DNA of 55,038 bases, counting the filler, from Haplodiscus bocki (lineage: Eukaryota): assembly GCA_965655095.1 (NCBI GenBank). It is 2 parts of 2 records of this genome, joined end to end, with 100 filler letters (N's around TTAATTAATTAA, not from the genome) between each part and the next. Parts side by side here need not be neighbours in the genome. Positions count along the whole stretch, not along the records: positions 1 to 27,802 come from OZ296655.1; 1 more part is not named here. The stretch is one strand, 5' to 3'. Made by a program: the position numbers and the translations under genes. Shown piece after piece: positions 9,001 through 34,065 of the stretch (the stretch's first letter is position 1; every line of letters begins with the position of its first letter). The notes beneath the pieces are model-generated. The model saw only the letters and a program-made list of their open reading frames with translations, was not told the DNA's origin and searched no databases.

Positions 9001-11480
9001 AGAGAAAAAAGAAGTCTTTCGAGTTTTCTTCCATTATGCCTGAACAACAATTTAGCACCAAGTCCAAGACTTGTATGCATCTCCAGAAACTCCAATTTTT
9101 TCTAGTCTTCAAATCCCAAAACTAAATTTCCAGCTACAGCAGCGCCAACAACTTGTCAGTGCAATGGTAGGCTTGTTTAGGTTCTTTAAAAAATCATTGC
9201 ATCATAAATCTTTTGATTTTCTAATCCTGCGGTAAAAGGAATAGAACATCAAAATACTGTTTACTTTGCAAAAAACCTTGACAACGGAACAATAGGCTTT
9301 CAGAAGTAACCAAAGAAATTTTTTTCCATACACTAACGAAAAAAAACCTGGAACACCTGCAACCACAAGAAAGAAAATTTAGATTGCATTGACAAAACTC
9401 ATCAATCGATATGAGAAAATCATATGCATATGAAGTAATGGCGTTTTTAAATAGAGGACCGCAAACACCCTAGACTAATCTTCGAGGAGACTTCTTATCC
9501 TCGGATTTGAAAAACGGTTGAGCAATTTTTGCAAACTGTAGTCCATGCAGATATGATGACAACAAAACGAGGCACATTCTTCTAAAAGTTGAACAAAATC
9601 AATCCATTCAAGTCGAAATCAGATTTGGAACCCAATGGCAAACCTTTCAGTGGAGATGCAATTCGAGAAAATTTAACGGGGTAGTTACAATGAAGAAAAA
9701 GCAAAGTGTTTCCACTTGCCTTCGTTTAGGTCTGAACAACGTTTGAGCACCAGATCCAAGACTTTTATGCATCTCCAAATGTTTCAGTTTTTTTCTAGCT
9801 TCCGCACACCAAGAACACTTTTTTGGCTTACTCACGGCTACCAACAAGCAAGTGCAATAACAGGCTCCATGCTTTTCATTGAAAAACAACTAATACGGAA
9901 AAAGATGTAGAACATCAAAAAAAGAGTTAACATTGAACACAAAAATTAATAGAAAAATTATTGGTTTTCAGGAGAAATGACAAAACTCTTTCATCACTGC
10001 TTACAACAAAGGAAGGCTGGACGATCCATCATCGCAAGAAGTAAAGTTGAATTGCACTGACAAAGCTCATCAAAAGATTTGAGAAAATCTTATGACTAAA
10101 AAAACGAGCACATTCAATTATTAGACCAAAAAAAACGTCAAACTAATTATTGAAAAACTTCTTGTCGTCAAAACAGAAAAGCAATTGAGCATTCATTGCA
10201 ATCTTTGGTCCATGCAGATATGATGACGACAAAAAGCAGCACATTCCTATAAAAAAAAACAAAATCAATCCATTCAAGTTCAAATGAGATTTGGAACCAA
10301 ATTGGAAACATTTCACTAACAATGCCAAAGGTGAGTTTTTCAACAAAAAACCATACCCTGAGGTCAAAGAAAATCCTTCCATTTAACGATACAACTACGA
10401 TCAACAACAAGATGAAGAGGAAAATGAAGTCTATTCAATCTCCTTCTTTTATGTCTGAACAACATTTGAGCACCATGTGTATGACTTGTGTGCCTATCCC
10501 AAAGTTCCAGTCTTTTTCTAACCTTCAACGGCTTAAAACAGTTTTCGGGCTACAGTAGGGCCACCAACTAGTAGGTGCATCAGGTTTCTTCTTTTTCTCA
10601 TTCAAAACCAACTACTGCCGTATACGGAATAGAACATCAAAAGACTGTTAACATTGACAAACACCACGAAAATGGAAAAATTGGCTCTCAGAAGTGATTA
10701 GAGGAACATTTTGTCTTTACTGGCACTAAAAAGACTAGAAGACGCGCAAACACAAGAAAAGCTTAGATGGCATTGATACTCATCAATTGGTATTGTGAAA
10801 TTCCTATGGCTAAAAAGTGGTGGCAAATTTAAAGTACAGACCAGAAAACAACTCAATTTATTTTTTTGAAAAAAGTTCGTATCTTCAAAACCAAAACGCA
10901 ATTGAGCAGTTTTTGCAAAGTTAAGTCCATTTAGATAACAAGATGACAAAAAAGGCACCAATGAGGGGTCATCAATGAGTGAGTGCCGTGTTTGGCTTCA
11001 TTAAAATCATTCCCATAACCAATAGTAAACAAATTAGAACAAAAAAGACAGTTAGCATTGGGAAAAAATCATAGAATTGGGGCTTTTTGACTTTCAGACG
11101 CAAACAGAGATATATTTCATCACTACTTGCAAAGAAATTAGGCTGAATGACATACAATTTTATAAAGTACAGTCAAAAATTGCTCTCAAAAAGCTCATGA
11201 ACTGGTAATAGAAAATCCTTGGGCTGAAGAGTACGGTCACTATTAAAGAACAGACCAGAATACCCCTCAAACAGTTTATTGTAAAGATTTCCTATCGTCG
11301 AAAGAGAAACACAAGAACACTTCTTGCAGTTTTCCGTCCATGCAGATAAAAAAAATGACGAAACGAAGCATAATCAAACAGAAAAAAAATGAGAAACCTC
11401 TATGTTCGAAATCAATGAAACGGGATATCTGATACAAAAGAACAAAGTGTTTGATTGTGAAACATTTCATTGAACCAAAA
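1..11480. repeat. Diverged tandem satellite array, ~720-bp monomer, ~16-17 copies (runs off the left edge)
   Basis: Anchor motif (g/c/t)agcaccaRg(t/a)cc and variants recur at ~157, 684, 1406, 2123, 2845, 3561, 4224, 4949, 5670, 6395, 7124, 7846, 8340, 9053, 9745, 10468 (spacings mostly 713-729; 527, 663, 494, 692 where monomers are shortened). Other anchors (aagacttcatgtcgtcaaaa, gtccatgcaga, tagaacatcaaaagac, ggctaaagagtacgggcac) keep the same order in each unit. Confidence 0.95.
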
Positions 11481-13879
11481 GCCAATGCATCAAGTTACAT
11501 AAACATGACTTGTTTTGCAGTGTACTGCACCGCTAATCACAAATAACGCTCTTCTGGGGACTGCCAAGCGCCAATGCTGCCTTTTGAAAACCACTGACTG
11601 CTATGTGGTTGTTAATTTTGCGAAAATCTCAAAACTAAATCTTGCCGTAATCGCCAAACTTAAGCATATATACGTTTTTGGCGTTCAACGAAAACAATAC
11701 TATTAATTGAAAGCTGTGGCCAATTGCCTCAATTGTTCCAGAATTTCATTTTCATTGAATGCTACTTTGAACTAGGACGTCACTCTCGATGTGGATTTAG
11801 AAGTTAATGTTTACTTTTTGTGACTACCACCCCCTTCAAAAGCGCCCCTTCGAGCGATAGTTTTTAAAACTTTCTCTATAAATCTTTTCAATGGCTTACC
11901 TATGGCACTATTTCCAATTGTTTCAGAGATGTGTTGAACCTCCAGAAATCTTTATACCATCAATTCAAAACACACCAATATTATCTCAAAAGAACATAGG
12001 GCCGTGCGAACCATTGTCAAAATTTGTGGTCGCAAACTTCAAGAGGCCTTGATCAAGTATGGGCAGCTAGAAAAACGGGCGCCACTACGCTGCGGACCCT
12101 CCTAACAACGTCAATACCGGTCACAATTCTTTTGAATAAGCATCCCAGACATGAGAAAATTTGAAGGGGGTTTATAGTCTATGTCACTGTATTGCATATA
12201 TAACCATATCGACTGTTTGGAATAAATCGTTGAAAAAATTATAAACTAAGGCTCGTCCAGACAAATCATGACCGTCTTCTCTCTTCAGCTGTACAGAGGA
12301 AATTGATGAGTTTCCGAAATTCTACCGTGGAACTGAACGTCACCCCTCATACACAGTATCTAAAATGAGTATCCAACAGAACAAGTTATCAAAAAAATGG
12401 ATGAGATCTACACTCAAGTAAAACCCTCTTAGACACCAGAAGCTGTAGTAACATGTATCAGAAAACAATAACAACACGTCCCGCGAACGCCCTGTGTATT
12501 CCGCCTTACTAAATAAGAAACAAGCGTCAATAGAAGCGTAAATCAAGGCCAATAAAAAAATCAGAGTTTGCCCAGAACCCCGGAAACACTTATGGTTTTT
12601 CAAACTTTTTCAACAAGAACCAGAAAAATTTAGCAATAAGAACAACCTGGGAAAAATGGTGTACGAATGACAAGCAACTGCAAGTTTGGTGAAGGGTTTA
12701 CTACACAAAAAGAAAGTGCCGCCAAAAACTTTTCGACGTCTTTGCCGAAGGAACGAAAAAAAGCAAGTGTAAACAGCAAGTCAATAAAAAGCCTGAGATT
12801 GATGATCAGTGAATGTCTGTGTTATAGCGTCAAGATGATCACATCGAGTCAAGAAAGCGAGTGAGCTAATCATGTCTTTCATGAAGTCATCTCTGACATT
12901 CCCTCGCCTGTTTTGTTCATTCAGCAAGATTTTAGTGACTTCGGGGGGAAAAAACGGAAGCAGACATTCCAAATGTCTTCGACAGATTGAAAATTCGATC
13001 TACTGATCTGGTCGAACGGTTTGCTGGTAACGGAAAAGACCCGAAACGAAGACATTTACCTTTAAATAGTTTTGCTCTCCGTATAAAACACGGAAAGGGT
13101 AAATCCTCAATTTGGATGATATTCTCAGAAACTGGAAGGCAATCTAAAACTCTACATTTAATTTTCCAAAACAACATTCCAAAACAAGAATAATAATTTT
13201 GTCCAAAACTTTCGAGATGATCTTTCCTCTCAAAGATCTTTTACCTTCCGAGCTTACCATACATCTTTGCGAGCTGGGATTCTGAAAAACTGATGAAGTT
13301 TTTGAAAATGCCAGAAGAATTTATATTTTTAATTTTTCCCTCGAAAAATAATTTTTCTAAATAAAATTGCTGGCAAGTTTTATGGGACCACCTGCGAAAA
13401 TAATTTTCAAGCTTCATCCAAAATTTCCCAAATTTCTTTAGTTAAAAGAATTTAATAGTCCAATGGAACGTGTTCCGCACGCCCCAAAAATACAAAAAAC
13501 ACACGTTTGGGAAGGCAAAACTTAATTTGGTGACAGTATTTCGTCAATGTTTACTTCCTTTTTTCTTCGTTGCGGTAGATAAGCGTGCTTCAAAATTGTT
13601 TTTCAAAAAAATGAATTTTGTTCTTACGGTATAAGTTTTGCAGAGAAATTATAGAACGTTGATTTTAAGGGAAAATATTCATTGTCTCATAATCCTTATT
13701 AACATTTTTTCCGTGTCTGCAAGTCATCATATAGTTGATTCACATGTCGATGGTCACGGTTTCCTTTTACCGATATAAAACTTACGATTTTTTATTATAA
13801 TGTTCCACAAGAACCAATTCAGCAATAGGAAAAACTCCGGGTCTTTTTTTTGACTTCTGCAACTCACTACTTTTGTTAA

Positions 13880-14035: not shown

Positions 14036-15931
14036 CTTCACTGTTTCAGGATATATTTTGGTGTTTCTCATGTGTTTTCCACTAATCTTAGACTGAAATC
14101 AAACAAGCCTAAAGGGAAAATGTAGAAAAGTTACACTCAAATTAAGCGAAGGATCTAAAAAAGACTTTTTTCATGGAAATGTGTTCGAAATTTGAATAAA
14201 CTACATCAACCTCGAGACTGTCACCACGAGAAAATCACAAAAAAACTCTCAATTCGGCGGTTTCTATTGACGGAGTTCCGACTTCTTTTGACACACATTC
14301 ATGCACATAAGTAGTATAGAAAAATGCGGATATATGAGCTTTGCTCTAATAAGCGCCTTTTTCTGTTCTGTTACTGCTTTCAACAGCACGAAAAATATCC
14401 ATTGAAAGCATACCCACCAATAAAAAGTTAAAAAACGTGCTCCTCCTCAATCACAAAAAAGTTCTTTGGTGGAAGCATGTTTCTCTACTTATTTCGTGAT
14501 GTGTATTTTTTCAAAGGATAATTTTTTTCCTTTGCAGAAATTCATAGGTTTTTCGATATTGGAATGAAACACATAGTTTACAGCAGTGGTGAATAGTTGA
14601 TATTCTTGTCGCCGCACTTTATACTGAAGTATTTTGCCTGAAATTATCTTTACTGGCCAACTCTTTCCAGCAGCATTCCTGGTAAGGAATGTAATTCAAT
14701 ACGTTTTTGTACAGATTCGCTGACGCAACACTTTTTCCCTTACCAGTGGGATATATCACTGCATCTGGGTTAATGCACCATGACTAGCATGACGGGGGAT
14801 AGGTTGTCTCGGCTTTTCAGGTGACGCTGACGAGTCAAAATTCAAAAACACGTCGTAAACCGTTAATTGAAATATTTAGGATTTGAGTTGATAATGGCTT
14901 TCTCTTTTTTCATCGATTTTAGTTCAAACTTGTATATATACTTCATTGGAACCGTTTGAGAGTGAATTAACAAAAAAGCTGTATACAATATTAATTTTTT
15001 TACCATTTTGTTGAGAAAGTTTCGAATAGCATTATTTATGAAATTGCAAAAACATCATTGCATGCAAATGTTTTTCGCGGGAACAAGATTGATCTTCCGT
15101 ACTTTTTCCGCGTACTCACAAATCATGTTTTTAATGAAGAATTGTATGTAGCAGGAAATTTGAAAAGAAGCAAGGTTATTTGAACACCAGAAGTTATTTA
15201 TAATGAGCGTCACAGCAAAAGAAATCTCGCAAAAGCCGTGTGTTCGCTGTCTAAACGTAATTCTAGATGATATTTTCAACAAAAACCTCACTAGATGAAG
15301 TTATTAGAAGCATATAAAAAAACCGATCTGATTGAAAGCGTTGATAAAATCAAATGTGAAACATGTAAAAGGAAGTTCAAAAAAGGATCAAAATTATCAA
15401 TGAAAATGTTGTCATGTTGTTTTTTCTTTTAATCAATTTAAAATATGAAACTATATCAATGTTTCATTTAGAAAACAATTGTCGTGTGGGAAGTGGTCTT
15501 TGGTTGAAATTTTTAGATGACAAAATCTTGTCATTTTCGTGGTGTGCGGCTGTTTTTGATCAATTAAACTTTTGAGTCTCAAAAATAAATTGGCGAACAT
15601 CGAGAACAAAGTTGAGCGGGTTTTCGCAAGCAAGGACTTGGTGGGTGGTTAATGAATTGTCAGCAATTTTTTTTTCAAAAAATTCAGTTCGATTAATTGA
15701 ATTTAACAAGTTTGGGATTGAATCTAACAAACTCTGCGTCAAATTTGATTGCAGATCTACAACGGGACGGTAATGTTTTGACCGCATTAACGGGTGATTT
15801 ATAACATTACTACATTTTAAAAGTAAAAGTCAAGATAATATTGTTGCATGCACTTCAAATATACGAAAAATAAAATATGCAAATGCATGTAGCTCCAATC
15901 TTAAATACTATTCGAAAACTTTTCCTCTCTG

Positions 15932-16247
15932 TGTAGGAGTTGAATTAACTTTGAGCACCACCGTTTTGCCGCGTTGTTTTGATTTATTTTGCGCTAGAAC
16001 GGAGAGCGTCGTCATCCGCTTTTTCCAGCGGTCTAATATATAAGTAATTAATTGAGTCAGCTCTAGAAATGACTAGGTTATCCGCGTAACGAAACAATCG
16101 AACGATTTGTCCTAGGCTAGTTCAGAGTTGTCAACTTGTAGAACAAAGTAAAAGGATTTAGTTGACCACTGGCTCAGCCGCGCAATCAGAGAGTTGGGTT
16201 AGGAACTAAGACTGGGTAACCCACTTCATACCGTAGCAACCGAGTCA
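15932..16247 (-). repeat. Putative 3' LTR of element A
   Basis: Minus strand starts TGACTC immediately after a polypurine tract and ends ...CTACA. TATA-like TTATATATT at ~16035-16043 and AATAAA (plus tttatt 15983-15988) are in the expected order. No second LTR is available to confirm the ends. Confidence 0.6.
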
Positions 16248-16260
16248 TCTCTCCTATTTT
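16248..16260 (-). other. Polypurine tract (PPT) of element A
   Basis: Minus strand AAAATAGGAGAGA directly abuts the LTR-initial TG. Confidence 0.6.
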
Positions 16261-16299
16261 CAGGCAAATACCATCGGATAACCAATGAAAACGATTCTG

Positions 16300-18790
16300 A
16301 CAGACGACTGGAATAGTAAATTTTTTCATCTAAGACTCAGCTTCATTAGACTTTTGGCACGACAACCCAGCAACTTCTCTTAGGTTTTGGGCATCTCCAA
16401 TTTGCTCTTAATCAGAGGGTTCATATTCAGAGCCATTTTTTTCCGTTGCACTCTTTTCAGAGACTTTTTACAAATAGACCCGACCTTAACTAACTGATTT
16501 TAATCAAGAGAGGTACACTTTTCTAGGGTTAGTTATTTCAGTACTAACAAATTGTTTCGCAAAACGGATACGTAACGAGTAGCTGATGATATTTCTTCAC
16601 AATACTCTTCTGCGAAAGAGGGAATATTCTGATAATCTTTGGATAGTAGATTTTCTATCGTTGTTCCAAAAAGGAGGAGAATTAAAGCTTCCCCGCAGAT
16701 TTACAGTTTTGAATTTCCAAAGTTTTTAGGAGTAGAAATTGAATATCTCAGAGTTTGAAGTATTTTATGAAGGTAGTCGACGGCGAACCTTTAAAAGAGT
16801 TTTGTTTTTCGTTGTTGGTGGTTCGCCGTTCAATTTCCTACACTTCAAGGCTCTGACCAGGAACAGTAAGTCTTACGCCAATGAATACCACATATGGTGG
16901 GTTGGTGATCATCTGAGTGAAGTCAAAAAATGAACTCTCAAGAGTTAAGGTGTGCCAGTCGTGAAGCAAACAGTTTGGCACCAGTCGCAGGGAGGTAGTG
17001 AAGAGAAAAACTTCGTTTAGATTCATAATAAGCAAGTGCACGACACTTTGAGGTTTCAAAAAGTGCCGTTTCAACTTCGTTACCGTTCTCCAACAACCGC
17101 TCCTTCCAACGGCAAGTAACTACCAATAACTTCTATTCAAAAGGAAAGTAAGTTTTAGGTCTTCTTAATGTCACTTTCTAATTTTAGAACGACCACTGTT
17201 TAGCGTTCTGGCTAACACGACAACTCAACCCCTTGACAAAGCATATAAATGGATTGGAGTCCTCTAAAGGAAAGGGAAAAGAAGGGATACCTGGTGAGGT
17301 GTAGGTATTGGGGAACCAAAAAACAAGAAATTTCAAGATACATATTGTTATAAAGGAGCCATCAGTTTGGTATGTGGGAAGAAGGAAGGACATCGAACCG
17401 TTGGTACAGTAAAGAAGTCGGCTAGGGCTGGTCGAGTCAGTTCCTTGGACTCAATCGGTTGGCTCCAGGCAATGAAGGGTTCAACATGATCTCGGACTCT
17501 CTGCTTGATGGTCTTTGAAACGGGCTATGGCAAAATGTCATCGTGGTCAGCTGAGTGTATAGATGGAGAGACAAAAACCATGTTTTAATGACAGCAGCAA
17601 ACCCATAAGGATAAAATTCGAAATAAGAAAATTAACCAAAGGGATGACGGCCAAAAATTGGGCTGCGGATTTGGGTAATTGGAGCGTTTTCCCGCCCAAA
17701 CATCAAGTACTACAGTTTTGCGGAATCAAAAATAAAATTTATGAAAGAGATTTTCCACAAAAAAAGGTAAATTACAATGTTCGAACTGGACAAATCTGGT
17801 TGCTCATGATTGACTCCTACTTTTGCAAGTACTGTAGGCACAAATTAAGTTTGTAAAATTCAGCAGAGAAGCATTTCTCTTGATTCTTTATTTTTTTTCA
17901 AGTTCCATTTGAGAAGCAGTTTTATCAATTTTTTCAAGCTGGGGTTGCAGGAGAGCGGAGTCTCATTGTAAACGTTGGACCAATTGTTTGAGAATTGCTC
18001 ATTCTAGCTATTCAGTTTCCACGTAGTTGCAGTGTTGCAAGCAAGTCGAATACATAAGTTTTTGCAGGTGTTGATTTTCCATACCCATCTGGAGGATGGA
18101 ATTGCCTGGAGAACGTGGGCGCCTCTGGAATCACAATTGAACCAAGGAGCAAATATTTCATTGTAATTAACTCGCAATTGGAGCTGTTCAAGTCAGATAA
18201 GCAGCCAGAAATTGTGATATAGAAGTTACTGTTACGACTGAGTTGTTATTGCTCGGAGCAAGCCACTGAGAAGGAAGAAGAGTGCTCTTAATTGTGAAAT
18301 CTTGTCGGTAGCTAACCAAAAAACAAGTTCACAGAAACGAGAACTTATCACCGCTCCGGCCTGACGAGCGAAGTGCTCTCATTTTTGCTGTCGTGCAATT
18401 GCAAATCTGCCCAAATTTTCATGATTCCTGTTTGTATGTCTTTGCATGCAATGAAGTTGTCTTTTGGATCGGTCATGTGCATCGCAAGAAGATGAAATTC
18501 GTGCTCGAGCGTCCCCAACAGAAGATTGAAAAACAGCTTGTTGCGATTGAAGAGTGATGGCAATTGTAATAGTACAAGTTGCAAATGTAAGTAACAGTTA
18601 GAACCTTGGGTCGTTTATACGGTATCAGACTGTGCATCAGGAGAAGCAGGATTAGATGGGATAATAGTCGATGGAGGCTGAAGAATTGTCACAACAGGTT
18701 CTAATTGTTGCCCCGGATTTGATGGCATCCAAGTAGGGAAATCCAATTCGATGTCGATCAAGACAGGCAAAGAGTCTTCATTTTCCCTCT
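16300..18790 (-). pseudogene. Decayed accessory ORFs (about three) between env and PPT of element A
   Basis: Same-strand ORF fragments 18348-18584 (preceded in frame by Pro-rich EDSLPVLIDIELDFPTWMPSNPGQQLEPVV), 17184-17393 and 16838-17126, separated by short AT-rich spacers. No domain recognised. Confidence 0.4.
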
Positions 18791-18825
18791 GTTTAAACTC
18801 TAAAAATTAAAAAACAACATAAGTG

Positions 18826-20593
18826 TTAAAATTGACGTAAACCGGTAACAATGGTAGTGTTACCGTGCTCATCGCTGGGTAGAGGTGCTCTTCTTTCTTT
18901 TCCGCACCCTCTTTTACCTTCCCTACCAAATTCGACAAATGAACCCACCTCCATATGCTCAATAGCAGCTAGTGCTGGAGCAAGAGGAATTCACATGGAA
19001 CTTGAAATAATTGTCAGTAAAGGTTTTAAGAGGTGCTCAACAGGGTCCTATCAAAGCCTAGAGTAGAGACTGTGATTTTTTTGAGTTCCATGTATGGCAA
19101 TATCATAACTATCATGTCAATATTAAGTTTTACGAACAGAAACAGTGAAAAGTCTATTTGACAAGGTTCCAGTATATGAAAGACAGTTCCAAACGTATCG
19201 AAGAATTGGTCTTTGAAGTATGCTGTGGGATCATCTTATCAACAAAGAGCTTGGTACATGCAGTGCAGTAGCGAGAGTTGTCTGCTCTTTCTTGGTCAGT
19301 AGTGTTTTTTAAAAAAAATAGCGAAAAGTTTTTTAGTCCGGTCCTTAAAGCGGCCTTGATAAACATGCTGTCCCAAAATCCTGGAAGCTCATTAAAATAT
19401 ATATCTCGGAACCTAGCGATTCAGTAAAAGAATGAAAGGCAATCGGCTTAGTACCCTGAGGCCCGACGATTGCAGTTTGGTCGCGGTGTACGATGACAGG
19501 TGTCAGTGATTACCAAGTATCTTGCTGATCCGTGTCGAGTCGGAACAGGTTCTCGATACAGTCAGAGCAGTTCTGAACAGTTGCATGGAGATAAATTTGT
19601 CGAGTAATAATATCAAAAAATTGAATTTTCCCGTTGTAAATTATTCGGATTTTGTCATAGCATTGTTTCATGGTGTGAATAGAAGAGTGAACTTTTGGGC
19701 AGTGGTAAAGCCATGTTACATTTCCATCAGTTTCGGAGAACATTGATCGGTTCCCGGTAAGCAAGTAACCTGCCAAGCCACGGTTTTTAAGAGCTAGTAT
19801 TAAATTAGTTAGAAATTTAGTTCGTTCCTGCTCACATTGGTTCTGCAATTGTTACATTTTCGTTTCTTGGAGTAACCGCGAGCTCCGAAAGAGTAGATAG
19901 TCAATCTTCATTCCGAGACGCGTTCCGTAGTTGATATTCAAATCCTTGTCGGGGTCTTCTGTCTGTGACCATTGTGTTCCTACTAACTGATGATCGTGAT
20001 CAAACAGTCGACCGAAATCTCCCTTCTCCTTGGGCCCCAGATATTGCTGAATCTTAGTTGCTCCGTTTTTGTCAAGACCCAACCTACTTCGCGTATCCGT
20101 ACCAAAGCCTTCGCTTATGCGGTCCATATAAAAAGTATCATAAGCTGTAAGGTATATAGTAGTAGGCTTCCCGCAAGCTTTATTGAATGATCGAGCAAGG
20201 TGAAATCTTTTCCTTCTGCTAAAGATTGACATTGTTCGAGAGAGATTACTAAGTCACTCATAATACCCGCAATGGTATGGTCAATGCTACTGTGGTCGTA
20301 CTGTCCACGTTGCTATTTTTCGCATTGATGTTGTACAGAGTATTTTGTTGCATTCAGTTCTTTTTGCAACTGTTTGGTTTAGAGCACAAACCTGACTTTA
20401 TAACTTCTAGTTCTTCTGGTAGATTGTGGCATCGTTTCACTTGATTTAAGGCAGAAAGAGTGTTTTCCGTCATTTCACTGCAATCGAAACTAACTATTTC
20501 TGGAGCTGGGGAAAACTGGTGTTCAACTGGGGTTAAATTGAAAACCATCTCGACCGTAAGCGCGAGGGTTTGAAAAAAGAAAAGCTTCACCAC
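18826..20593 (-). pseudogene. env: env: class III-type (chuvirus G / herpesvirus gB-like) envelope glycoprotein, with stops and frameshifts
   Basis: Hydrophobic N-terminus, then SFDCSEMTENTLSALNQVKRCH; QHQCEK*QRGQYDHSSIDH...EQCQSL; QCEQERTKFLTNLILAL...LAGYLL...WLYHCPKV...CYDKIRIIYNGKIQFFDIITRQ...C; C-terminal membrane region DTFGTVFHILEP...FSLFLFVKLNIDMIVMIL. This Cys and motif layout matches what I recognise from chuvirus-like glycoproteins. Confidence 0.75.
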
Positions 20594-20619
20594 TAGTTTA
20601 ATTAGCGGAAAATGTATCT

Positions 20620-23340
20620 CTATTATTCTGGAGGGTAGCCAAGAAAAAATGAAAAATGAATTTCAAAAAGGACAAAGGAATAAGACCGTTTCGTCAAAAA
20701 GGTGCCAAATGGGGTTTTTCTAACCTCTATTTTTGAGTTGAAGTTCTCATAACTACCATTCAAACGTTTCGAACAAGACTGTCTATTGCTGAGAGTCAAA
20801 TATTGACAATAGGGAATGAATTCTGTCACCAGTTGCTCCTGCAGTGGGTTAGTTTCACTGAAAAAGGTGAACTTGGTGAATTCCACCGAAGACCAAAGAC
20901 GACAGAAGATTGATTGGTTCTTCCGTATCCTACTTCATCAGTTTTTTCGATGTTCCGCGTTGGGATTGTCGTACACCTCTGCCTGTTTTTTTAATTGGCT
21001 TCTCCACTTCTCCTCAAACAATTATCTCCAGATAATTTCCAAATACACTTGAGGCTTAGCTCGAATGTCATGAACTTTTCCACCCGTTTTACGCAAAATT
21101 CTGGATTACACTCTTCATTTGCTCTGGTGGCAGGTTAAATCAGAATTTTTTAATGAAAAAAGTAGTGAGCTGGCATTTTAGGGCGGCACTTAAAATTGAC
21201 TTTTTTCAGCTGTCTAACTCTTCCCGTCTTTTTTTGAATACCGCAGTTGCTGGGTTGTAAGTTAGGTGTTCAATAAGATAAGAATCAACCGTAAATTCAC
21301 GCAACATTTTGGTCTCAAGGTCGTTATGACTGTTCAACTGTTTCGATTCTTGCTTTTAATTTCTTCTGGGGGGTTTTCTGAGGGTCCTCTAAAAAGGATT
21401 ACTGATGTATTCTTTTGATACACTTGAATATCACTGGTATCCCAGTTGCAATGGCTTCTGTTTTAATGTCGAAACTCTCCGTAACTTAACTATAGGTTGT
21501 TCTTATAAGAGCAAAAATGTATCCATTAACATTGAAGAATATTAGTGTCATCTAGCGTATGACTATCCCGAATGATTGAGTACTAACAGTCGGCATTGCT
21601 AATAGTTTAATAGTTGAGTTGCGTCTTCTGGATTGTCGCGTACCGTTAAGTACATAGCACATCTGAGAACGATGCGTCAGTTTAAACTCAGTTTTAAACC
21701 TTTCATAAGGTAAATAATTAATTTTTAAGAAAATTAATTGAAATCAGGTTGAGTGTGAAAGATTCTTTATTCATTCGATCTATGCGTTTAATTGTAAGCG
21801 GTATCAAGCAAAACTAATAAACGGAATCGTGCAATTTTTTTTCATTTTCTATTCTTTTTCTATTCCTTCTTGCATTCTGCTTTGCTTATCACAGCAAGGC
21901 CTTCCGGGGAAAAGCGTGGAAAAATATTCCGGGTACGGAGTAAAGAAGCTCGAGCATGGAGCTATAGAATGATTGATTGAAGAGAGGAGGAGGGTGAGAA
22001 GGAAGCGGGTAAACAGGGGTTCGGTTCTTGTTGTGTAGTTACTTCGTGTGTTTTTCTATTGGCTGTTACAGGATGGCAGAACCGCCGTCTGTTGTCCAGG
22101 AGGTGGAAGAGTAGGACAAAATCCATCTGCTCAGGGAGCCCCAACTCTCCCAAGCTACTGCAGAAGAGTCTCTTCGCCGCTCACTTTACATTTTCAGCGA
22201 GCCAGCAATCTTAGGGAATGAAGGCTGGAGAGTCTTCGAAAGATATCATCGGGGCAACGGTGATGTACCAGTGTTGGCACGGTTCTGGAGCTTTCTAGAA
22301 AGACTACACGAATGAAATCTGGGCTGCGTTGTCCTGTCCGGGTCCGATGAGATTTTCTTGTTCGAACTCCCAGCAATCCCCACCGGGTATCTCGGCCCCA
22401 CAACGGAGCAGAGCGAAGAGTTTGTTCTGGTCATAAACAACTGGCCAGTTTTTTTTTCTGGACGTTGTTTTGGTCCTCGGTGGAAGCTGGGGGCTTTCTT
22501 TGCCTGGAGTGAACAACTCCTGCTGGCGGGGTTATCCTTCCCCGTGGGCTTCGTCTGTTATGGTTCTATCTGAACTATCCATTGTAATAGGATTGCACAA
22601 ATGATTCATATTTATGAAGACTAAAATGAAAAATTAAACGTTGAAATCGTTGTCCCTTGTTTCTGGCCCTACGGTAGGATTAGCAGAAAAAGAATGAAGA
22701 AAGAATCGCTTAGTATGAAAAAAGTCAAGAATTCAACCATTATCGGTTCTGAATTCTGAAGAGTGATAACACAAAAGCTCATAGAGGCTCGTCAAAACCG
22801 GAAAATCAAGTTCGACTTGCATATTACGTTTCCGTGTGAGGTTAGATTGGGCTCTATACAGAGACGAAACACGCACGAACAATTTGTGTTGAATAGCTCC
22901 AGTTTACTTTGGAATGAAGAACCGTGTCTAGTGCTAAATCGAGTCAAACTGAAATAGATGTCCACAGCCAGTCAGGATAATTTTTTTTGACATTCAGGCT
23001 TTTGCGTTAAGTGAAAAGAGAACAAAAACAAAATTGAGATTAATTGTGAGAACGAAAAGAATGAACTCTGCTAACTTTGAACGGATTTTTGCAGTAGAAT
23101 AACATCTGTAACCCTGACGGGTGAGAGTGCCGAGGACCGATGGAGAAATGGGTTGGCTTGGCTGAGATCTGTGGGACTCTGGTTCTTTTGGTTTAGCGTG
23201 TCGGATGTTTCGTAAAAATTGTTGTATCGGAGTGAGTGGGCTGGTTACAGCCGAAGTTGATTGCCCATTAACTGTTTTCTTCGACTGTAGAGGCAAATTT
23301 TCAGGTGTAAGAGGTAGAGCAGGCCAAAAAATTTGAGTTG
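20620..23340 (-). pseudogene. Decayed ORF remnants between pol and env of element A (possible pol C-terminal tail plus 2 accessory ORFs)
   Basis: Same-strand fragments 22994-23296 (S/P/T-rich), 22304-22516 continuing to 21962-22153, and 20623-20886. No RNase H or integrase motifs seen. Confidence 0.35.
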
Positions 23341-23357
23341 AGCCAACCCCGAAGTCA

Positions 23358-25700
23358 GAACCCTCCGGATGAGACGAAATGTCCCAGAAACTTCACTTTT
23401 TCGAGAAAGAATAATGTCCTCGCTGGAGCTGCTTTCAGAACTGCTTTCCTGAGCAGTTTATGGTACTCCTAAATAATCGTGAACACTTCGCCGTTGTTCT
23501 GTGACCGCAATCTGGTGTCCTTTCTGTAGATAATTGCTTGTTTTTTTTTATAAGCGGCTCAAAATAGACTTTCATCATGCAGTTAAAAAAAATGGCAATG
23601 CACATAGTCCATAGAAACCTCTTGTATAGGTATACTATCTGCCGCCACTAATAAAACTCGTTAGTTTCCGAGTTTCGAGTCTCAGTGGTACTTGGTGGTA
23701 GGCGGAGGAAAGATCACTGATTGAGAGAAATTTATCGTTTGCTAGGGTCATTATCATTTGTACAGGTTAAATAGGCCAGTTGTAGTTAGCGAGGTCTGTT
23801 ATCGAATTCAGGAACCGTGCTTCTATGACCAGTCTCACATAGTCACTTCTGGGCATCAGGATGACAGGATTAACAATAAACGATCCCATTTCGTCGTTGT
23901 CTCCCATTTCTCCTATGATGTCTGCATTTTTGAGCTCAGTTACAATGTTCTCTCGAATTTCCTTTTCAATTACAGAGGTACCTTGCTCCATCTCTGCCTT
24001 TTCAATTCGACATTTGGTTTCAACGTTAACTTAAAATTCTGACGAGTTTCACCAACATCGAACTTCTGTTGTGTGTAGACATCCCGCGAATCAATGAGCA
24101 TGTCGGTGAGGATGGTCATCTCTTCATCAGCAATTTCAGACAACTGAAAGTCTTATTCTTTCACATATTGTTCAGGTTCTTTTGGCTGGTATTGAAAAAA
24201 AAATATTCAATTAGATGAAAATTATATTCCTTTTTACACAAGGTAAGTATTTGTTCATCACATGGTGGCTGAGACGATTTATACTCTCTGGTGGAGTGTG
24301 TTTCCAAATCTCTATCGCTCAAGTAGAACTCTTCAATATATTCTTCTATTTCATCGTCCGCATAGAAGTCAGGGCCTCCTCCTGAGGACAAGGCATGTAC
24401 TCCGTTCTCCTCAAACGTACACACTACTACTAATTGGATATCCGAAAAGGAGAAAATATTTCTCAACTGCTTTGCTCCCTCTTGCAAGTTCATTTTATCG
24501 AGTCCACTTCGAAATTTAGGAATTGTACTGGTCGAGATTCCATACGGTTGTGCATAAGATTTCATTCCCTCTAGAGTTAAAGATGAACTATTCAGTTTAA
24601 GTTTTTCAGAAAATCTAAGTTTAGTCACTAGGTTATAGATATACCGATTACTCGTTCGGTCTCAGAAGGGAAAAACTTGGCCCATTGACAGTCGTATTCG
24701 TCTGCAGGCATTTCTCAGGCCAGGAATTCGTTGTGAAAGTAATTCGGCAAATCCCCCGCTCGTTTTAGCGTCGGCTGAGATGCAACATCCGATAGAGTTG
24801 CGCTGCTCTATTATTGAATTTCCATTTCCGTGAAACATTTGGTTAAAAAATCGTCTGAAGACTTAGCAGGATTTGTTGAGTGTTAGGGAAGAGAGATTTT
24901 ATACTTGTCGTCTGAGGCTAATATGGCATTGGATAATTCAAATGGTTTCCTGATTTGGCACTTGGGGTCTTCTTCATCGATTATATCCATAACAAAAATC
25001 CTGTTCGCCCTTTAGGAAGCTATACTTGATTGTTTTTCTTATTCTTAATCCCAATCGGACGAGGACGTTCAGACCGAGTAAAATTGATGTTAACAAAATT
25101 ATGACCTGTGGATACTGCTACCCGGTTAAGCTCGAAATTTGATCCAGGAGTAAATAGAGGTTTCGGATCTTCAGGTGAGTTCTTCCAACATCTGGTCAAA
25201 TTAGCATCAACGTGCGTAGTGTAAGGTAATCGGACAGTTAGAAATCGAGAAGCGTTCGGAAAAATTATGTTCTGATGAAAACTACCATAACAAAAGAGTT
25301 CTTGGAGGCTGTTGTAGTTCAATACCTTTCAAATTGAAATGAATTCTGGATGCTTGGGTTTGACAGATTTTCATCCCTAAGAAGTTTTGACTTTTTCTTT
25401 CTGTTATCCACACAGTTAGCGAAAAGGAGTTAAGGTCGTAGCTAAAAATCCTTGTGAAATAGCCGATCATTAGTACTAATTGTCCCGAATTTATTTTGAT
25501 TAGTTCGTTACTTTTGTGATCTGTGATGGCATGTAGAATTTGAGAAACAGCCAAAAAGATCCGAAAAATTATAATTCAACAAATAGGTACACTATCTAGC
25601 AAGAATTTGCTTTCCATTCCACTATCTTTTTGTTCGTCTCGGGTGGCAGACAAAAAATTTTGAAACTATTACTTGGGCTACTGGATCGACCAGAGCCAGA
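23358..25700 (-). pseudogene. pol: pol (protease + reverse transcriptase) of element A; RNase H and integrase absent
   Basis: Protease FLLDSV (~25595) and NFLGM; RT NPVILMPRSDYVRLVIEARFLNS, DLSSAYHQVPL, QAIIYRKD (decayed YxDD, ~23520), LKAAPARTLFFLEKVKFLGHFVSSGG, then an abrupt loss of homology at ~23358. Confidence 0.85.
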
Positions 25701-25715
25701 TTTTGGAGACCTCAT

Positions 25716-27170
25716 TAATTTAGCGAGCAGATGTCCGACAGATCTTTGATCGAGTTGTCCATTGTAGCAAAACGGACTGCATTAGAGCTGGGCTGTTCGT
25801 TGGTTCGATTAAATTTTTGTCCATAGTGGAAAAAGTCACTAAGTCCCTCACCATTAGATTCTAGGAATACTGAGTTATCAGGTGTACTAAAGCATGAGGA
25901 CTGTCGGGTTCCTGGGTTTTGTTGGGGTCCCGTCTTGAACCAAAAGGAGAACGCGGAAAGGTTCCAATTATTTGCCTGGTTCTGATCATCGGAGTTCCGG
26001 TAGAAGCATTCCGGTGAAAAGTGTCGTCTTTTCTGTTGGTAAATTGAATCTGATATCCATCAGTTGGTCGTAAACGACCTGAATTGAACGAGTCTTTCAG
26101 GTGAAATTATCCCAAACATTTCGTGGGTAAGACTGTGTAGCTCCTTCTTAGGCTGATTAATGTGCGTGAGTTTTGTCCCTCCTAGTTTTTTTTCTGTTTC
26201 CAGTATTGTTATTTTTGAACTGTCCAGATCCAAGACTAGGTGCTTTGTTGTTTGTTATACTCATTTGTGAACATCACAGGTTTTTCAGCCATTGTTCCAT
26301 TCTGTACTCTCGTGACTTCTTCTTGTCCAAATTTTTTCTCATACCAGATTGGGTTGTGTTGAGTCCAGCAATACTTGCAAATACTTGTAGCGTTTTGTCG
26401 GCCCTTCTGATTAAGGTCGGGTTGTCGTGAGGCTTCCAGTTCGGTCACTCGGTGTTCCTGAAGTTGTGAACGAAGATTTTTCAATTCTTGACCTAATGAG
26501 GCCAATTCAACCTTAGTTTGACCTTCATCGTTGAGATAAATTGAAGAAACCTAACAATTCACATCTCTTTGAATGATTCATGTGGATATATTATCCCATT
26601 TTTTGTTAGATTTCTACTTCAATAAATTTTGAGCTTCCGGTTCTCGTTCTCTTGGTCGAGCTCCTCGTAGAGTGTAATAAAGATACCGTTGTCGTTCCTG
26701 CATTTCTGGGGCCTGTGTTGTTGCAGCTCTATCACCTTCAGCGATGCTTTCCATATTGTAGCCATCCCTTGTTAACAATCGTTTTTATTCGAAGTAGGAA
26801 ATTTTTCTGTCGCCTCGCACACAGTGTTACACCTCCCTTGTCAGTCGAAATTTGGTTCGCCAGTCAGAAACTTGGGTTATGAACTACTCTTCACGGGTGG
26901 CTGCAATTGTGGTAGTATTCTCAATATTGTTTTCATACCAATTTGCTGCAGGTGCCTGGAGTAGAGAGGAGAAGAATGCTTTTTGCGGAAAGTTTAGGTA
27001 GCCAAAACATCAGCATCTACTGGTGCGTCTGCGAAAGCAAAGTTCATCTATCCTTCAACAGGTGGAACAAAAGGTTCAGCATCCTGATCGAGATCACTGC
27101 CAAAGAACTTGTCTATGGTTAAATCGAGTTCAGCAAGATGAGCGTTAGCCACATTGTTAATCTAGTTTAC
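25716..27170 (-). pseudogene. gag: gag of element A
   Basis: IDKFFGSDLDQDAEPF...FSSLLQAPAANWYE (retrotransposon capsid-like); coiled coil MASLGQELKNLRSQLQEH; decayed zinc knuckle CKYCWTQHNPIWY (ORF 26236-26505); lies directly upstream of the protease. Confidence 0.75.
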
Positions 27171-27239
27171 TTCATGTTACAAAGAGTCCATTGATTCACC
27201 ATAAACATGATGCTTATAGTCAATTAAATGAGGTAACCG

Positions 27240-27799
27240 TAGTAAACTCAGGAGGGCCTCTGTTTAGGATTTGAATAATGGATGCGGTTCATCTGTGTCC
27301 AGTGGTTGATGGATATCAGTATTTCTTTGAGGATGGATTTTTACCAGTAACCAAAAATCGTAATTGAAAGTCCAATTGATGTAAGTGATATTGAACGTGA
27401 TACTTTCGTTGACTGAAGTGATGGTCCAGGGGCATGTGGAGTGTGGCATTTCATCAAATTCGTCGTCACCGAAAATAATTCAAACGACTGGGTTTGGTTG
27501 GCCAGATAAGGTATTCAAACTCGGTTGTCAATTTCTGTGACGAGTTGTAATACTTCAACTACGGATGACAGATATCCATATATCATAAAAAAATAGAAAG
27601 AATCGCTAGGAATAGAAAGTACAAGAATATTAGGGAACTTTGTCTCATTTAGGAGAGCTGAAACAGTAGGGTACAAAAAAGTTGAATTTTGGCAGTTCCG
27701 CGAGGTCCGCGTTACGGAACTTTTCTCAAAAAGCATAAAAAACAAAAAGATCTTTAATTTTATAGGCAATCGCGTCCCAGATCGTAAACTGGAAATCAA
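27240..27799 (-). pseudogene. Extra ORF (ORF0) upstream of gag in element A
   Basis: ORF fragments 27515-27799 and 27264-27449 on the element strand, 5' of gag. No recognisable domain. Confidence 0.35.
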
Positions 27800-27902: not shown

Positions 27903-28533
27903 TGATTGGCGCAGTTTAATACCAGGTATCAGTTGTACTCCTGTGATATTTTGTGACACACAGGCATTACCTTTCTCGGTTATGCGTAGTGTTGGTATTA
28001 GTTGTAGAATGTCTAGTTAGTTCGTCAGTGATGACTTTAGCATATTTTGTCGCTGAAAGACTTTTAGTACTTCATTTTTCAGACTTCATGACACTCATGA
28101 CAACTTTTTTTTTCATTTTTTTGGCAATAGTTTCAATGATATTTTTGTCGTGCTTCATGTATAGCTTTCCTTATATTTGAATTGTATGCCTTTTTTCCAT
28201 GCAAGGCTTAATTGTATTCCTGTGCAGTTTATAACTGAAAGGAAAATTGATTGTGAGAGGTCATGCTGGATGCATTTCAACACAATCCAGTTAGAATACT
28301 CTGACATATTTCATTGGGCATACCATTTCGAAGGTAGTTTTAACATTGGAGTTCAGATTTGATTTCACTTTCGACTCAACTTTGGTAATCAGGGCGAGGG
28401 TTTCACCAGCGTTTACGTTGTATGTTACGTTGTATGGTTTCTTCTTTATTAATGCCGTAGTCAGGTTTAAACAAATGACTCCAGCAGAACTAACAACTAC
28501 ATTATGTCACGCAGAACGGGTTAATTACGTGTA

Positions 28534-29149
28534 CCGTAGTGTCAGAAAAGAAAGGAACCTTTATTTGTGAATTAATACTGGAACGCTGCATATACTTGCG
28601 TAACACGCAAAAGCAACTGAAAATCACAAATTATGTTAGAAACAAAAGTTTCATGTAATTTTATCTAGTGTACAATGGTGTTTGTTTGAAACTTCTAGGA
28701 TCATTATTATAGAAGTTAGAGATTTTGCATGACTCCCTTTACAAAATATTAACATTGGGAATGACTACTTTTTCTCGAGAAATCTCTGCTCATTTTGATA
28801 GTGTAAACACTGGGGAGCTGCCAACTTCTTAGTGTAATCAGTGGATGAGGGCATCTTGACAGTATATGAAATGTAAACAAAAACGAAGTAGAAGTTACTT
28901 GAAACATCGAAAGTTGTGACGCAAAATCAACCTCCTATCTTAATACATAGAGGTGCAAAATCTCCTAACTTTTATAATATTGATCCTAGAAGTTTCAAAC
29001 AAACACCATTGTAAACTAAATAAATTTCTAAGAAACTTTTCTTTCGAACATAATTTGTGCTTTTCAGTTGTTTTTGAGTATTACGCAAGTATATGTAGCG
29101 TTCCATTACTATTTCACATACAAGATTCCTTTCTTTTCTGACACTACTG
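28534..29149. mobile_element. MITE / non-autonomous Tc1-mariner-superfamily element with ~196-bp TIRs and TA target duplication
   Basis: Left end TA|CCGTAGTGTCAGAAAAGAAAGGAA; right end TTCCTTTCTTTTCTGACACTACTG|TA. Arms 28534-28729 and 28954-29149 are imperfect inverted copies around a ~224-bp non-coding core. Confidence 0.9.
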
Positions 29150-29694
29150 TAATTTGCTCTATTGGTTAATGCATGGAACATCAGATGACTGCTGAAACGT
29201 GTAGCGTAAACTGATTCCTGCAGAATCTTCGTGAAACAAATTGGGAGTTGACAGGAAAACTAAATGGAAAAAAAGAATTAGCCATAAATTATTGAAGATT
29301 GAACCATTTAAATCTGGCTCAAACAAGAGACCTTACCGTAGTCTACTTTTCAAGCAAAATTCAGGAATTGCTCAAGTTTCTTCTCTTTGACAATTTTTTT
29401 CAAGTTCATACGCTTTATTGTTTGTAAATTGAGTTTGTGTGCATTCCGTCTTTTTGAAACCAGAACGTATAGGCATTCAGTATCTTCTTGATGAAACAGT
29501 TTATCAAAGTTGAGGTTCGACACACTAAGGTGTAGGAGTAAAGGTCAGTTCGACTATTCCTTCGAAAAGAAAATGCTTGGTTGTTTGATTGACTACTACG
29601 TCGAGCATCTAAAATATCATGAATAAAAGAATACATTACTTATCAACGAACCAACTGACCGCTATAATCGCTTTAGCTAGTTTCAACCCTAGTG

Positions 29695-29860: not shown

Positions 29861-32800
29861 TCATTGTTTTAGGATTCAATTTGATTTTTTCGAGTCCAGA
29901 ACATCGTTTCCTCAATCTAAACTTAGAGTGGAATCCTAAAAGCTTTTCTGAGGGATAACGTCAATAAAGAAAAACTCATATTAAATTTTAAGAAGAAAAC
30001 AAATATTTCTTTACAAATGTATTTAAATATTGAATAAAACACATCAATTTTAAAAAAAAAAACACTCCGAGTTAAATGCAAAAGAATCTCTATTTGACCG
30101 GTTCTAATGACTGGCATCCAACTTCCGGACACAAGCCTGACCAAGCCTACATGCAGCTGTCCAGGAGCTATATAAGTGCAAACGCCGATTCTGGCTCAAA
30201 TGGAATTCTCTTAAACATTGAAACAAGTTTATAAAAGTCTTTATCTTGAGAAGTTTTGGAGGAGCTTGAACGAAACAGGAGATGTTTTTTTTTCGGAAAA
30301 CGTAGTCAGGAAAAATTTTAAACTACTTCGATGGAGTCAGACTTTGAATTTTTTCTTGTTGAGGCCAGTTTTTTTGCGGTGACGTTTGCATTCGTTTCTT
30401 ACATTGGGATTTCTGTCGAGTTGATTACATCATTGGTTTTTCAAATTCGAGAAAGATTTTCAGTGATTTTGATGGGGCTACTCTGAAAACCATTGATGTA
30501 ATCAGTTTGACAAAAACGCAAACGTAGAAAACGGAGGCAAACGTCACCAGAAAAAAAAGCCTAAAGTTTGAAAAACAAAAAACTTAGAGCTCTGCAGGAG
30601 CAAAAACGATGTAATTTGAGAACTAAAAAGGTAAACAAACTATGCAAACATTGGGGGAAAAAGCAAAACTGTCAAATAAGTCAAAATGGCTGTTTTTGGT
30701 CTTTTTCACACTTCGCCAGACTCCCTATCGAGGTCGCAAAATGCAACCTCTGGAAAAATTAAGCAAAAAAAACTAAGTTGCCATTACACACTCTACCTAG
30801 CACTCAGAATGTGTGAAAAAACGTCCAAAAGTTTTACATCAAAATAAACACCCCCTAAATGAAAATTATTATTTTTTAGACCGGACTTCATTTTAGAACT
30901 TCTTCCATTTTTCTGTCGCTTCGCAAATCAAAACACAAATTCAGCTTCTAAATCAAACAGTCATTTTCAAGCAATTTACTTGCGCGAGCATCTTCGAACT
31001 ACCTTGTCCAACTTACTGACACAACTAATTCAAACAACTATTACAAAGGCGCAGTAACAATTCCCGAGCGTAGTGGGACCACGCATACCGACAAAGGAAC
31101 ATGTCAAAAACTTCAGACCTTCTCTCACTGGATCTTATTCTTTAGATCTTATTCCGTCTCCCATTTGTTGAGCCTCTTAAAAACAAATAAGCTCTAAAAC
31201 ATCAAGGTACCTGAGACAAAAATACATATTAGAAAATACAAATACAGAAAAGAAACACATAAATGCATAACTTATCAACTATCTTCTGAAAACTTTATCT
31301 GGCTAATAGTTAAATTTGGAGAAACCGAATCATGACTTATCGCAAAATTTTCAGTTATTTCGAGTTTTTGATAAGTCAGAAAGATCGCAAGAGTCGAGAA
31401 TTTAGTAAAAAGTGTTGTCATACTGCAGAAACGTTGACAGAATTTTGTCTTCAAGGCCAGAATTAGTACCATTTTTTTCGAAACATTCCCAACAATTGAG
31501 TTTTTTGTGAAAATTTTTCCATCTCAGAAATCGATCAAAACTTAGACTGCATTGGGCAATTTCCTCAAGAAAACTGTCCCAAAAGAACAATCGTTTACGT
31601 TATTTTTTGTGGAAAAATCAAAAAAGGCAGGAATATTTTCCGATCTGTTTTTTCGCACTGGTGCCGGAGTTTTTGTTGCTGCCAAAAGATTTTTTGCGTT
31701 CACAATTATTCTCGGTTTGACGAATTTGTTTCGGATTTTGCTCTGCAACGAAAATTGGTAATTGATGTAATAAATGCATGTAGTAGCATCAGAAAGTCCG
31801 GAAAATTCGCGAACGAACCTCCTTAAAATTTTGCAAAGAACAATCAAAACCCCCGACAAACTATGCAAATCACATTAAAGAAACCTATTAAAAATCAAGG
31901 CAACAGATCAACATTCGTCCTTGAAGAGTTTTGTGTTATTTTTCTAAACTCATGCAAAAAGCTCAAGGTATTTGGTAAAATCATCAACAACTTCAAATGC
32001 ATTAAAACTAGTTGAAGAAGTGATGGGTGTGCAGGGTTCTTAGGTACACTCTTTAGCAAATATATTTACTTTTGTTCGCTTTAGCTGAAATTGCTAAGTG
32101 GCATGTGCGGCCAAACGTCTAAGTTATCGTGAGAAAAATCTCTAAACTTTATACTGTTATTAGCTTTGTAAACTTGCCTTGCTAATCCGCGCTGACAAAG
32201 TTGCATAAGTTCTACTAGCAAGGTCTTGGTGAGAAAAGAAAGAGTAAAAAACGTAAGATGATATATTTGCTGGATAAACGGAAATGGTAGTCAATCTTAT
32301 AAAAACAAGTTTGCTTAAGACAAGATATAAATTCGGAAAGGTGAGATTACTAGGGTCAAAATTTGAGCGGTCCAAACTATTTCAATCCAGTAGCAAGTTT
32401 ATGACAACTTCCAACTTTAAAATTATTATTTCACTCTCTTCTCAACGATATATAAAATGGCAAAGGGAAACTCGCCACAATCTCCCGTGCTACAAGACCA
32501 GGTACCAAATCAAATGAGGATCGGGATTGAAATTCCTCTGGAACCCGATATGCTTGAGCCCGAGTTGACTCCTTCCCCGGTATCTGGGGAAGATGGGTCC
32601 GATAACTTTTCGGACTTTTTTACTGAGTGGACGTGGAGGCTCTGGAAGAGTGGGCTAATATAACCAACTTTATAATGGGCGGTCTTGGGTTCTCAGTTGA
32701 AGAACCAGAGATTACATAGAATTGCCGTGATTTCCTGATAGTTATGTATGGGAATATTTCGGAAAAGCGAATTCTCCGCTGCACCACAATGATAATAGAG

Positions 32801-33850: not shown

Positions 33851-34065
33851 TGGCAAAGACACAAATTGGAATTGTCGTAGAAGATTTTCGATAAGTTGCA
33901 ATATGGTCTTGGCTGAGACACAATTTCGAATTGTCTTAGAATTTTTTCGATAAGATGAAATTGAACTTCGGCTTTGACACAGTCTGGAAAACTCTTAGAA
34001 TAGTTTCGTTTAGATGCAACCGAAGTTCGGCTGAGACACAATCTGGAACTGTCTGAGAAATAATC
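33851..34065 (+). repeat. 59-bp tandem repeat, ~3.6 copies
   Basis: ggc(tga/aaa/ttt)gacaca starts at 33852, 33911, 33970 and 34029 (period exactly 59). Confidence 0.85.

Follow-up and report, generated by a model that had tools for sequence, protein, structure and literature searches.

A decayed Ty3/Gypsy provirus in Haplodiscus bocki and its young relatives with a class III-like envelope and a probably host-derived TRAF-C gene

Introduction

Envelope genes in retroelements raise the question of what kind of fusion protein they encode, to which backbone they belong, and whether any copy is still intact. We asked this of an env-like gene in the genome of Haplodiscus bocki (assembly GCA_965655095.1). 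The window, i.e. the whole stretch of DNA analyzed, comprises 55,038 nucleotides, filler included, in two parts joined end to end, the first of which (positions 1 to 27,802) derives from OZ296655.1. A first-pass annotation had proposed that a Gypsy element located here carries an envelope related to chuvirus G and herpesvirus gB, and that it belongs to a potentially infectious lineage using a class III fusogen. Such envelopes were noted there as reported in some invertebrate Gypsy lineages; they have been described across animals and are not rare. Among 1512 env-bearing Gypsy elements, F-type and gB-type env were equally abundant, and the gB type resembled Chuviridae G and herpes gB (Chary & Hayashi, eLife 2026, PMC13524379). 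The chuvirus-like, gB-like glycoprotein of mosquito Bel/Pao elements was also found beside Gypsy pol (PMC13524379). A gB-type envelope on a Gypsy backbone is thus a published class. We combined searches for intact copies with structure prediction, selection analysis and comparison with host genes.

An old provirus with a dead env gene

Six-frame translation of positions 20608 to 18840 (minus strand) yielded an env-like gene containing everything the first-pass annotation had listed: the signal-like N-terminus, FDC...LNQVKRC, the Cys-spaced pieces and the FG...FVKLNIDMIV membrane segment. Its env-like character exceeds chance, as the piece at 19513-19851 matched the Pfam family PF24664 (Monjiviricetes_fusion) at E 6e-13 (48 bits, cut-off 27); with stops read as X, 19360-20142 matched at E 1e-15. 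The gene is split among three frames into five pieces; the aligned pieces contain 7 stops, there are 4 frame changes, and no Met occurs in the frame in which intact copies begin. Compared with intact copies, ~390 bases are gone near 20142-20179, a gap that, projected onto the model of an intact relative, would take the second fusion hairpin and most of the PH-like domain. What is left here is a decayed env from an old Ty3/Gypsy provirus, a dead copy to which "potentially infectious" cannot apply. Around it lie the other remnants of the provirus, located with tblastn where identities or E-values are given:

15480..17222, minus strand: 3' LTR, TGTCG...CGACA, 1743 bp
17270..18118, minus strand: ORF5 remnant, coiled coil and TRAF-C (MATH) domain, with stops and frame changes (49-54% to an intact copy)
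18274..18803, minus strand: ORF4 remnant (found by tblastn), acidic/Pro-rich N-terminus and a conserved C-terminal domain of ~80 aa
18840..20608, minus strand: env, gB/chuvirus-G-like class III fusion glycoprotein gene, pseudogenized
22145..22468, plus strand: remnant of an antisense ORF between pol and env (42%, E 3e-20)
23105..25665, minus strand: pol remnant (found by tblastn), with protease, macrodomain (about 24400-24860), most of the reverse transcriptase (RT), a deletion and the pol tail
25718..27152, minus strand: gag remnant (47-62%)
27180..27476, minus strand: small "CPW" ORF remnant, before gag (E 1e-12)
L043:2441-4282, beyond the end of the first part of the window: partner 5' LTR, after which a TGG primer-binding site follows

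A polypurine-tract-like GGGGTTGAGT precedes the 3' LTR. The two LTRs are 80% identical over 1408 bp and the insertion is therefore old; its flanks (TTTG and ATTG) match at 3/4 bases. A profile of intact ORF5 recognized the window remnant at iE 2e-39 and 3e-21; the two pieces taken alone matched no Pfam family. The deletion in pol comprises RNase H and integrase (residues about 800-1763 of intact pol), and the window copy can make none of the element's proteins. We considered a non-autonomous lineage defined by this deletion, because one other of 40 scored copies spans it; both flanks of that copy are also shared at 73-77%, however, which identifies it as an old segmental duplication.

Intact gag matched PF03732 (E 5e-7). 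No Pfam family was matched by ORF4, the CPW ORFs or the antisense ORF, and the last had no usable Atlas match either. Ahead of gag, one to three small ORFs with the CPW motif are found, depending on the subfamily, and in subfamilies A, C and D this ORF family is also present before env (L127:1289-2423; L136:2412-2819; L126:2731-3231).

The window contains further repeats. Positions 1-11400 form a diverged tandem array with a period of ~720 bases that ends ~4 kb from the 3' LTR of the element. On the minus strand, 52126-54840 is what remains of another, distant pol of Gypsy type, with RT and integrase at 22-30% to the element family. A 159-base inverted repeat at 28529-29151 (87% complementary, ~90% identical to sequence flanking copy L034) looks like a small DNA transposon. 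In the second part, a weak antisense-ORF match (E 3e-5) and a match to a subfamily A LTR (70%), at 32630-32857 and 33852-34060, are possibly another relic of the element family.

A recently active family with a constant gene order

Intact copies, which the first-pass annotation had suggested looking for, were readily found. A 113-aa piece of env used as query returned 4185 first-look candidates in the 1.5-Gb genome; every one of the 150 that were scored was a match, many of them lying in an open frame of about 734 aa, and searches with two more distantly related env types yielded 71 and 64 scored matches. Intact relatives encode an Env of 720-770 aa. We named the four sampled env types subfamilies A-D. 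Relative to A, RT is 80-94% identical, and between subfamilies identities fall to 54-79% for env and 33-52% for MATH. In a quick env tree, the four subfamilies and five database proteins formed one clade (SH-aLRT 100). None of the 10 clusters of distant env homologues carried a name.

All four subfamilies share the same order of genes: gag, pol with its macrodomain, the antisense ORF, env, ORF4, and the TRAF-C gene (ORF5) just before the 3' LTR. Across 39 copies, hand-picked from the top-scoring env matches and hence favoring intact ones, the antisense ORF and ORF4 were present in 39/39 and MATH in 38/39 (as only ~35 codons in two), and the env frame reached at least 700 aa in 30/39. The 16 env-side stretches from subfamilies C and D all contained ORF4, MATH and the antisense ORF, and in nine of nine additional upstream stretches, macrodomain, RT, RNase H and integrase precede env. 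Downstream checks of three old relatives found MATH in one; the other two gave no match. In a heavily deleted subfamily C copy (L152:4505-8110), gag has a short piece of env and the MATH gene close by.

Two measured copies span 19.9 and 18.3 kb. The family has the features of Ty3/Gypsy LTR elements: paired LTRs with TG...CA ends, primer site, polypurine tract and target duplication. It was very recently active, as seen from LTR pairs that are 99.5-99.8% identical (100% in another), from one copy with an exact target duplication of 4 bp, and from pol frames that stay open for 1847-1886 aa. One copy (L033/L034/L096) combines LTRs that are 99.7% identical and open env and ORF5 with a pol containing several stops; with such young LTRs and yet a broken pol, it was likely moved in trans by a helper.

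The primer site matched the 3' ends of nine genomic tRNA-like sequences. The three that we read show a CAT anticodon loop, suggesting that tRNA-Met is the likely primer; ARAGORN called no gene on these three. Dispersed tRNA-Met-like 3' halves ending in CCA and matching the primer site (L123-L125) are possibly reverse-transcribed primer copies.

Selection was estimated from pairs within subfamilies with dS above 0.02, using copies from the top matches, because dS between subfamilies was saturated for most genes. Mean pairwise dN/dS in subfamilies A to D was 0.06, 0.14, 0.05 and 0.09 for env, and 0.21, 0.29, 0.14 and 0.10 for ORF5. Both genes are under purifying selection.

A related element from another source (L146, a 13-kb contig; RT 75%, env 40%) contains gag, pol and env, and the same primer-site motif at 12468. 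Two tandem ORF4 homologues lie behind its env (9651-12095), each with a coiled-coil-like tail (profile iE 1e-7 and 4e-4). No MATH or macrodomain was matched in this contig, a result that holds for the contig only, which ends ~1 kb after the last ORF. ORF4 thus looks older than the TRAF gene.

A Gypsy backbone with a class III-type envelope

The assignment of the element to Gypsy and not to Bel/Pao, on which the first-pass reading depended, was supported. Three intact pols have the order protease, RT, RNase H, integrase by Pfam positions, and the element contains a Gypsy-type set of Pfam families (PF03732, PF17919, PF17921, PF22938, PF24626). The closest solved relative of its RT is that of Ty3 (E 1e-34), followed by foamy virus (7e-23) and MLV (1e-12). 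Between its protease and RT, pol contains a macrodomain (E 4e-4 and 4e-5), with a dN/dS of 0.03 between subfamilies A and B, for which dS is near-saturated.

The env gene is also tied to this pol beyond the window: integrase was found ahead of env, and oriented like it, in 38 of the 39 sampled copies. This bears on whether the glycoprotein gene might instead be a chuvirus-derived endogenous viral element, or an Anakin-like Bel/Pao gene merely located near a Gypsy pol. Chuvirus G proteins are indeed the best structural matches of Env, and in arthropods most such insertions adjoin fragmentary LTR elements, as far as described in PMC10084718. Here, however, env sits between one pair of LTRs together with gag and pol in a fixed order and is linked to pol in nearly every sampled copy; no Bel/Pao-type Pfam family occurred among the matches at E up to 0.5 or 0.01, and the best solved relative of the RT is that of Ty3. 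We therefore regard an unrelated glycoprotein gene as extremely improbable, and treat env as a gene of the Gypsy element.

Intact env matched PF24664 at E 1e-32 to 4e-44 in the four subfamilies. An AlphaFold model of an intact natural Env, built with 60 homologues, reached pLDDT 75 and pTM 0.48. In Foldseek searches, G proteins of chuviruses and xinmoviruses ranked first (E 5e-32 to 1e-28); among solved structures herpes (HSV) gB was first (E 1.6e-13, with a TM-score of about 0.2), and aligned to gB the model gave Z 11.8 and rmsd 14.4 over 407 residues. Residues 55-277, covering the fusion and PH part, folded alone with pLDDT 88, and the 13 best of 48,161 chains compared with that model were all class III fusogens (gB, rhabdovirus G, thogotovirus GP and GP64), the best Z being only 6.2. 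A sequence search against the PDB returned no significant match, so that the likeness is one of fold. Env thus shares its predicted fold, domain order and PF24664 with chuvirus/xinmovirus G and herpes gB, but in structural alignments is only 13-17% identical to chuvirus G and 9-11% to gB.

Fourteen ectodomain cysteines are each kept in at least 43 of 48 rows with a residue at that position, and a hydrophobic stretch begins at about residue 603; signal and anchor were judged from hydropathy and predicted helices only. The four env types contain no R-x-K/R-R site, and no env relatives were found in viral contigs. The models support the proposal, first made for the window gene, that the Env of the intact relatives is a class III fusogen of the gB/chuvirus type.

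A TRAF-C gene that probably came from the host

ORF5 matched PF21355 above the cut-off in all four subfamilies (E 1e-16 to 5e-19), and its MATH domain matched PDB chains of TRAF4, TRAF5 and TRAF1 (E 3e-13 to 7e-8). In a simple scan, heptad-like stretches precede this domain, and no RING or zinc-finger family was among the Pfam matches of any ORF5 scanned. With coiled coil and TRAF-C, ORF5 resembles TRAF1-like proteins; TRAF1 likewise has no N-terminal RING and zinc fingers, unlike TRAF2-6. ORF5 differs from TRAFs in reading YPYG where they usually have YLNG, and in being coded inside a retroelement.

Wnt genes in the genome mark the host as an animal; a connexin search and its control both came back empty. 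A MATH search of the genome gave 2967 first-look candidates. The two best matches were host genes (L147 and L148), with homologues at 72-78% identity from other sources and no gag, pol or env within the 10-kb stretches around them. The element MATH matched these two at E 1e-22 to 1e-35, whereas another pair of host MATH genes (L149 and L150) reached only 1e-5 to 4e-15, and it shares the YPYG motif with L147 and L148. A GT-AG intron interrupts L147 (349 bases) and L148 (186 bases) at the same position, through which the element reads without a break. An intron in the host genes that is absent from ORF5 points to capture from spliced mRNA, and on these comparisons ORF5 was likely captured from a host TRAF mRNA. 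The parts of L147 and L148 that were seen contain no RING, so the RING-less state of ORF5 may be inherited and not an adaptation. The one zf-TRAF locus had no MATH match in three adjacent stretches. Just upstream of the host TRAF gene, L147:4541-6955 contains two open frames of 258 and 401 aa that resemble transposases; by eye they look MULE-like and hAT-like.

The reverse direction, in which L147 and L148 were domesticated from ORF5 and gained the intron later while the element obtained its TRAF-C from elsewhere, draws on the structure of these genes, as most of each lies in one long exon (frames of 392-398 aa). The MATH tree leaves room for it too, being a polytomy of the subfamily D elements, the elements of A-C, the L147/L148 group and two long outgroups; the number of captures (one or two) and their direction consequently rest on pairwise scores and the intron. 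Host branches in this tree are short, however, and element branches long, and the slow-evolving host type, with its 72-78% homologues elsewhere, is closer to canonical TRAFs (best PDB E 4e-22, versus 3e-13 for the element). The related element L146 has no TRAF match. Domestication is thus improbable, and we retain capture from the host as the preferred origin of ORF5.

Possible roles of Env and ORF5

We think it probable, though far from certain, that the window holds the decayed env of an old Ty3/Gypsy provirus whose young relatives combine a class III Env with an intron-less TRAF-C protein, likely captured from the host and likely acting as a decoy. Env would carry a signal, 14 conserved ectodomain cysteines, fusion hairpins in a PH domain, a long central helix and one membrane anchor. 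It would trimerize on Gag-Pol particles and fuse them into neighboring cells, most likely from soma to germ line, as in Drosophila errantiviruses; the soma-to-germ-line route of Drosophila elements is discussed in PMC13524379. ORF5 would meanwhile occupy TRAF-binding sites or join host TRAF trimers, so that the signal would not be passed on. Binding without signaling would follow from a protein composed of coiled coil and MATH with no RING or zinc finger. For this function taken by itself, competition with host TRAFs without signaling, we would give somewhat less than an even chance.

The main rival holds that ORF5 is an adaptor or activator, recruiting host proteins for assembly or trafficking or switching on survival signaling in the producing cell. 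Purifying selection on ORF5 fits any function, this one included. The MATH domains of the subfamilies have also diverged in what we take to be the strand lining the receptor groove of known TRAFs, as judged from alignments, and with MATH only 33-52% identical, the target of ORF5 may have changed. Against activation stands the lack of any RING or zinc-finger family in ORF5, together with the behavior of RING-less TRAF fragments in mammalian cells, where they are dominant negatives. On the side of the rival, TRAF-C in Burro elements occurs with BIR, BCL2-like and SUMO-like domains, a set interpreted in PMC6431247 as meddling with apoptosis and ubiquitination. We consider an adaptor or activator unlikely, yet worth keeping in view beside the decoy that we favor.

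A further alternative is that ORF5 and the other extra ORFs are functionless passengers. Constraint is indeed weaker in subfamily B (dN/dS 0.29 for ORF5, 0.40 for ORF4 and 0.50 for the antisense ORF), and all eight subfamily D copies have no antisense open frame of at least 150 aa. ORF5, however, has an open frame of at least 250 aa in 34/36 copies that had been selected mainly for their env, evolves at dN/dS 0.10-0.29, and has been kept in place across subfamilies while its MATH domain diverged. A passenger role is therefore very improbable, and a functional ORF5, most plausibly a decoy, is the reading that we carry forward.

Comparison with known elements and implications

As described in the text of PMC13524379, "ancient" errantiviruses with an HSV/gB-type ENV share with the present family a Ty3/Gypsy pol, the order gag-pol-env, LTRs, a tRNA primer site and multiple copies; in both, env has a signal, conserved cysteines and a membrane anchor, and a furin site is not required. 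Compared with the elements described in that text, the present ones differ in size (18-20 kb in two copies), in a 3-kb gap between pol and env, in the pol macrodomain, and in the antisense ORF, CPW ORFs, ORF4 and TRAF-C gene. "TRAF" and "macro" are absent from the text of that article, and "TRAF" from its supplements. Anakin, a mosquito Bel/Pao element, likewise has a chuvirus-like glycoprotein on an LTR element, with a Bel/Pao backbone in place of Ty3/Gypsy (as presented in PMC10084718 and PMC13524379).

The accessory gene set is the less ordinary part of the family, and a TRAF domain in an enveloped Gypsy element has one precedent, Burro. These giant planarian Gypsy elements combine env homology and MATH_TRAF_C in one element (Arkhipova & Yushenova, PMC6431247). 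The likeness extends to the kind of env homology, which includes mononegavirus fusion proteins, and, in one species, to MATH_TRAF_C on a separate accessory ORF. In Burro, however, env lies inside one polyprotein between gag and pol, TRAF-C is inside or upstream of it, and BIR, BCL2, ankyrin and dUTPase domains occur (same source). In the present family, TRAF-C follows env as the final ORF, and an intron-bearing counterpart has been identified among the host genes. Among openly accessible articles, the Burro review was the only one found to report an enveloped Gypsy element with a TRAF or macrodomain gene. In that literature, and in the text of PMC13524379, no gB-type env was found to be followed by a TRAF-C gene of its own frame with a likely host donor.

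More speculatively, and with doubts that outweigh our confidence, these elements may form a "complex retrovirus" lineage of Gypsy with a class III envelope, a host-captured TRAF decoy, a macrodomain that removes ADP-ribose, and three orphan accessory families, which would suppress TRAF-dependent innate or death signaling during cell-to-cell spread. The accessory genes matter more here than the gB-type envelope. Because viruses keep captured signaling genes when the pathway opposes them, the selection on TRAF-C and its amplification point to a host response through TRAFs against an endogenous retrovirus-like element in an invertebrate. Likely donors of the gene occur in the same genome as very young copies, which makes both origin and function of ORF5 directly testable. 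If the complex-retrovirus reading is true, it would be direct genetic evidence that such animals police enveloped retroelements by protein-based innate signaling as well as by small RNAs.
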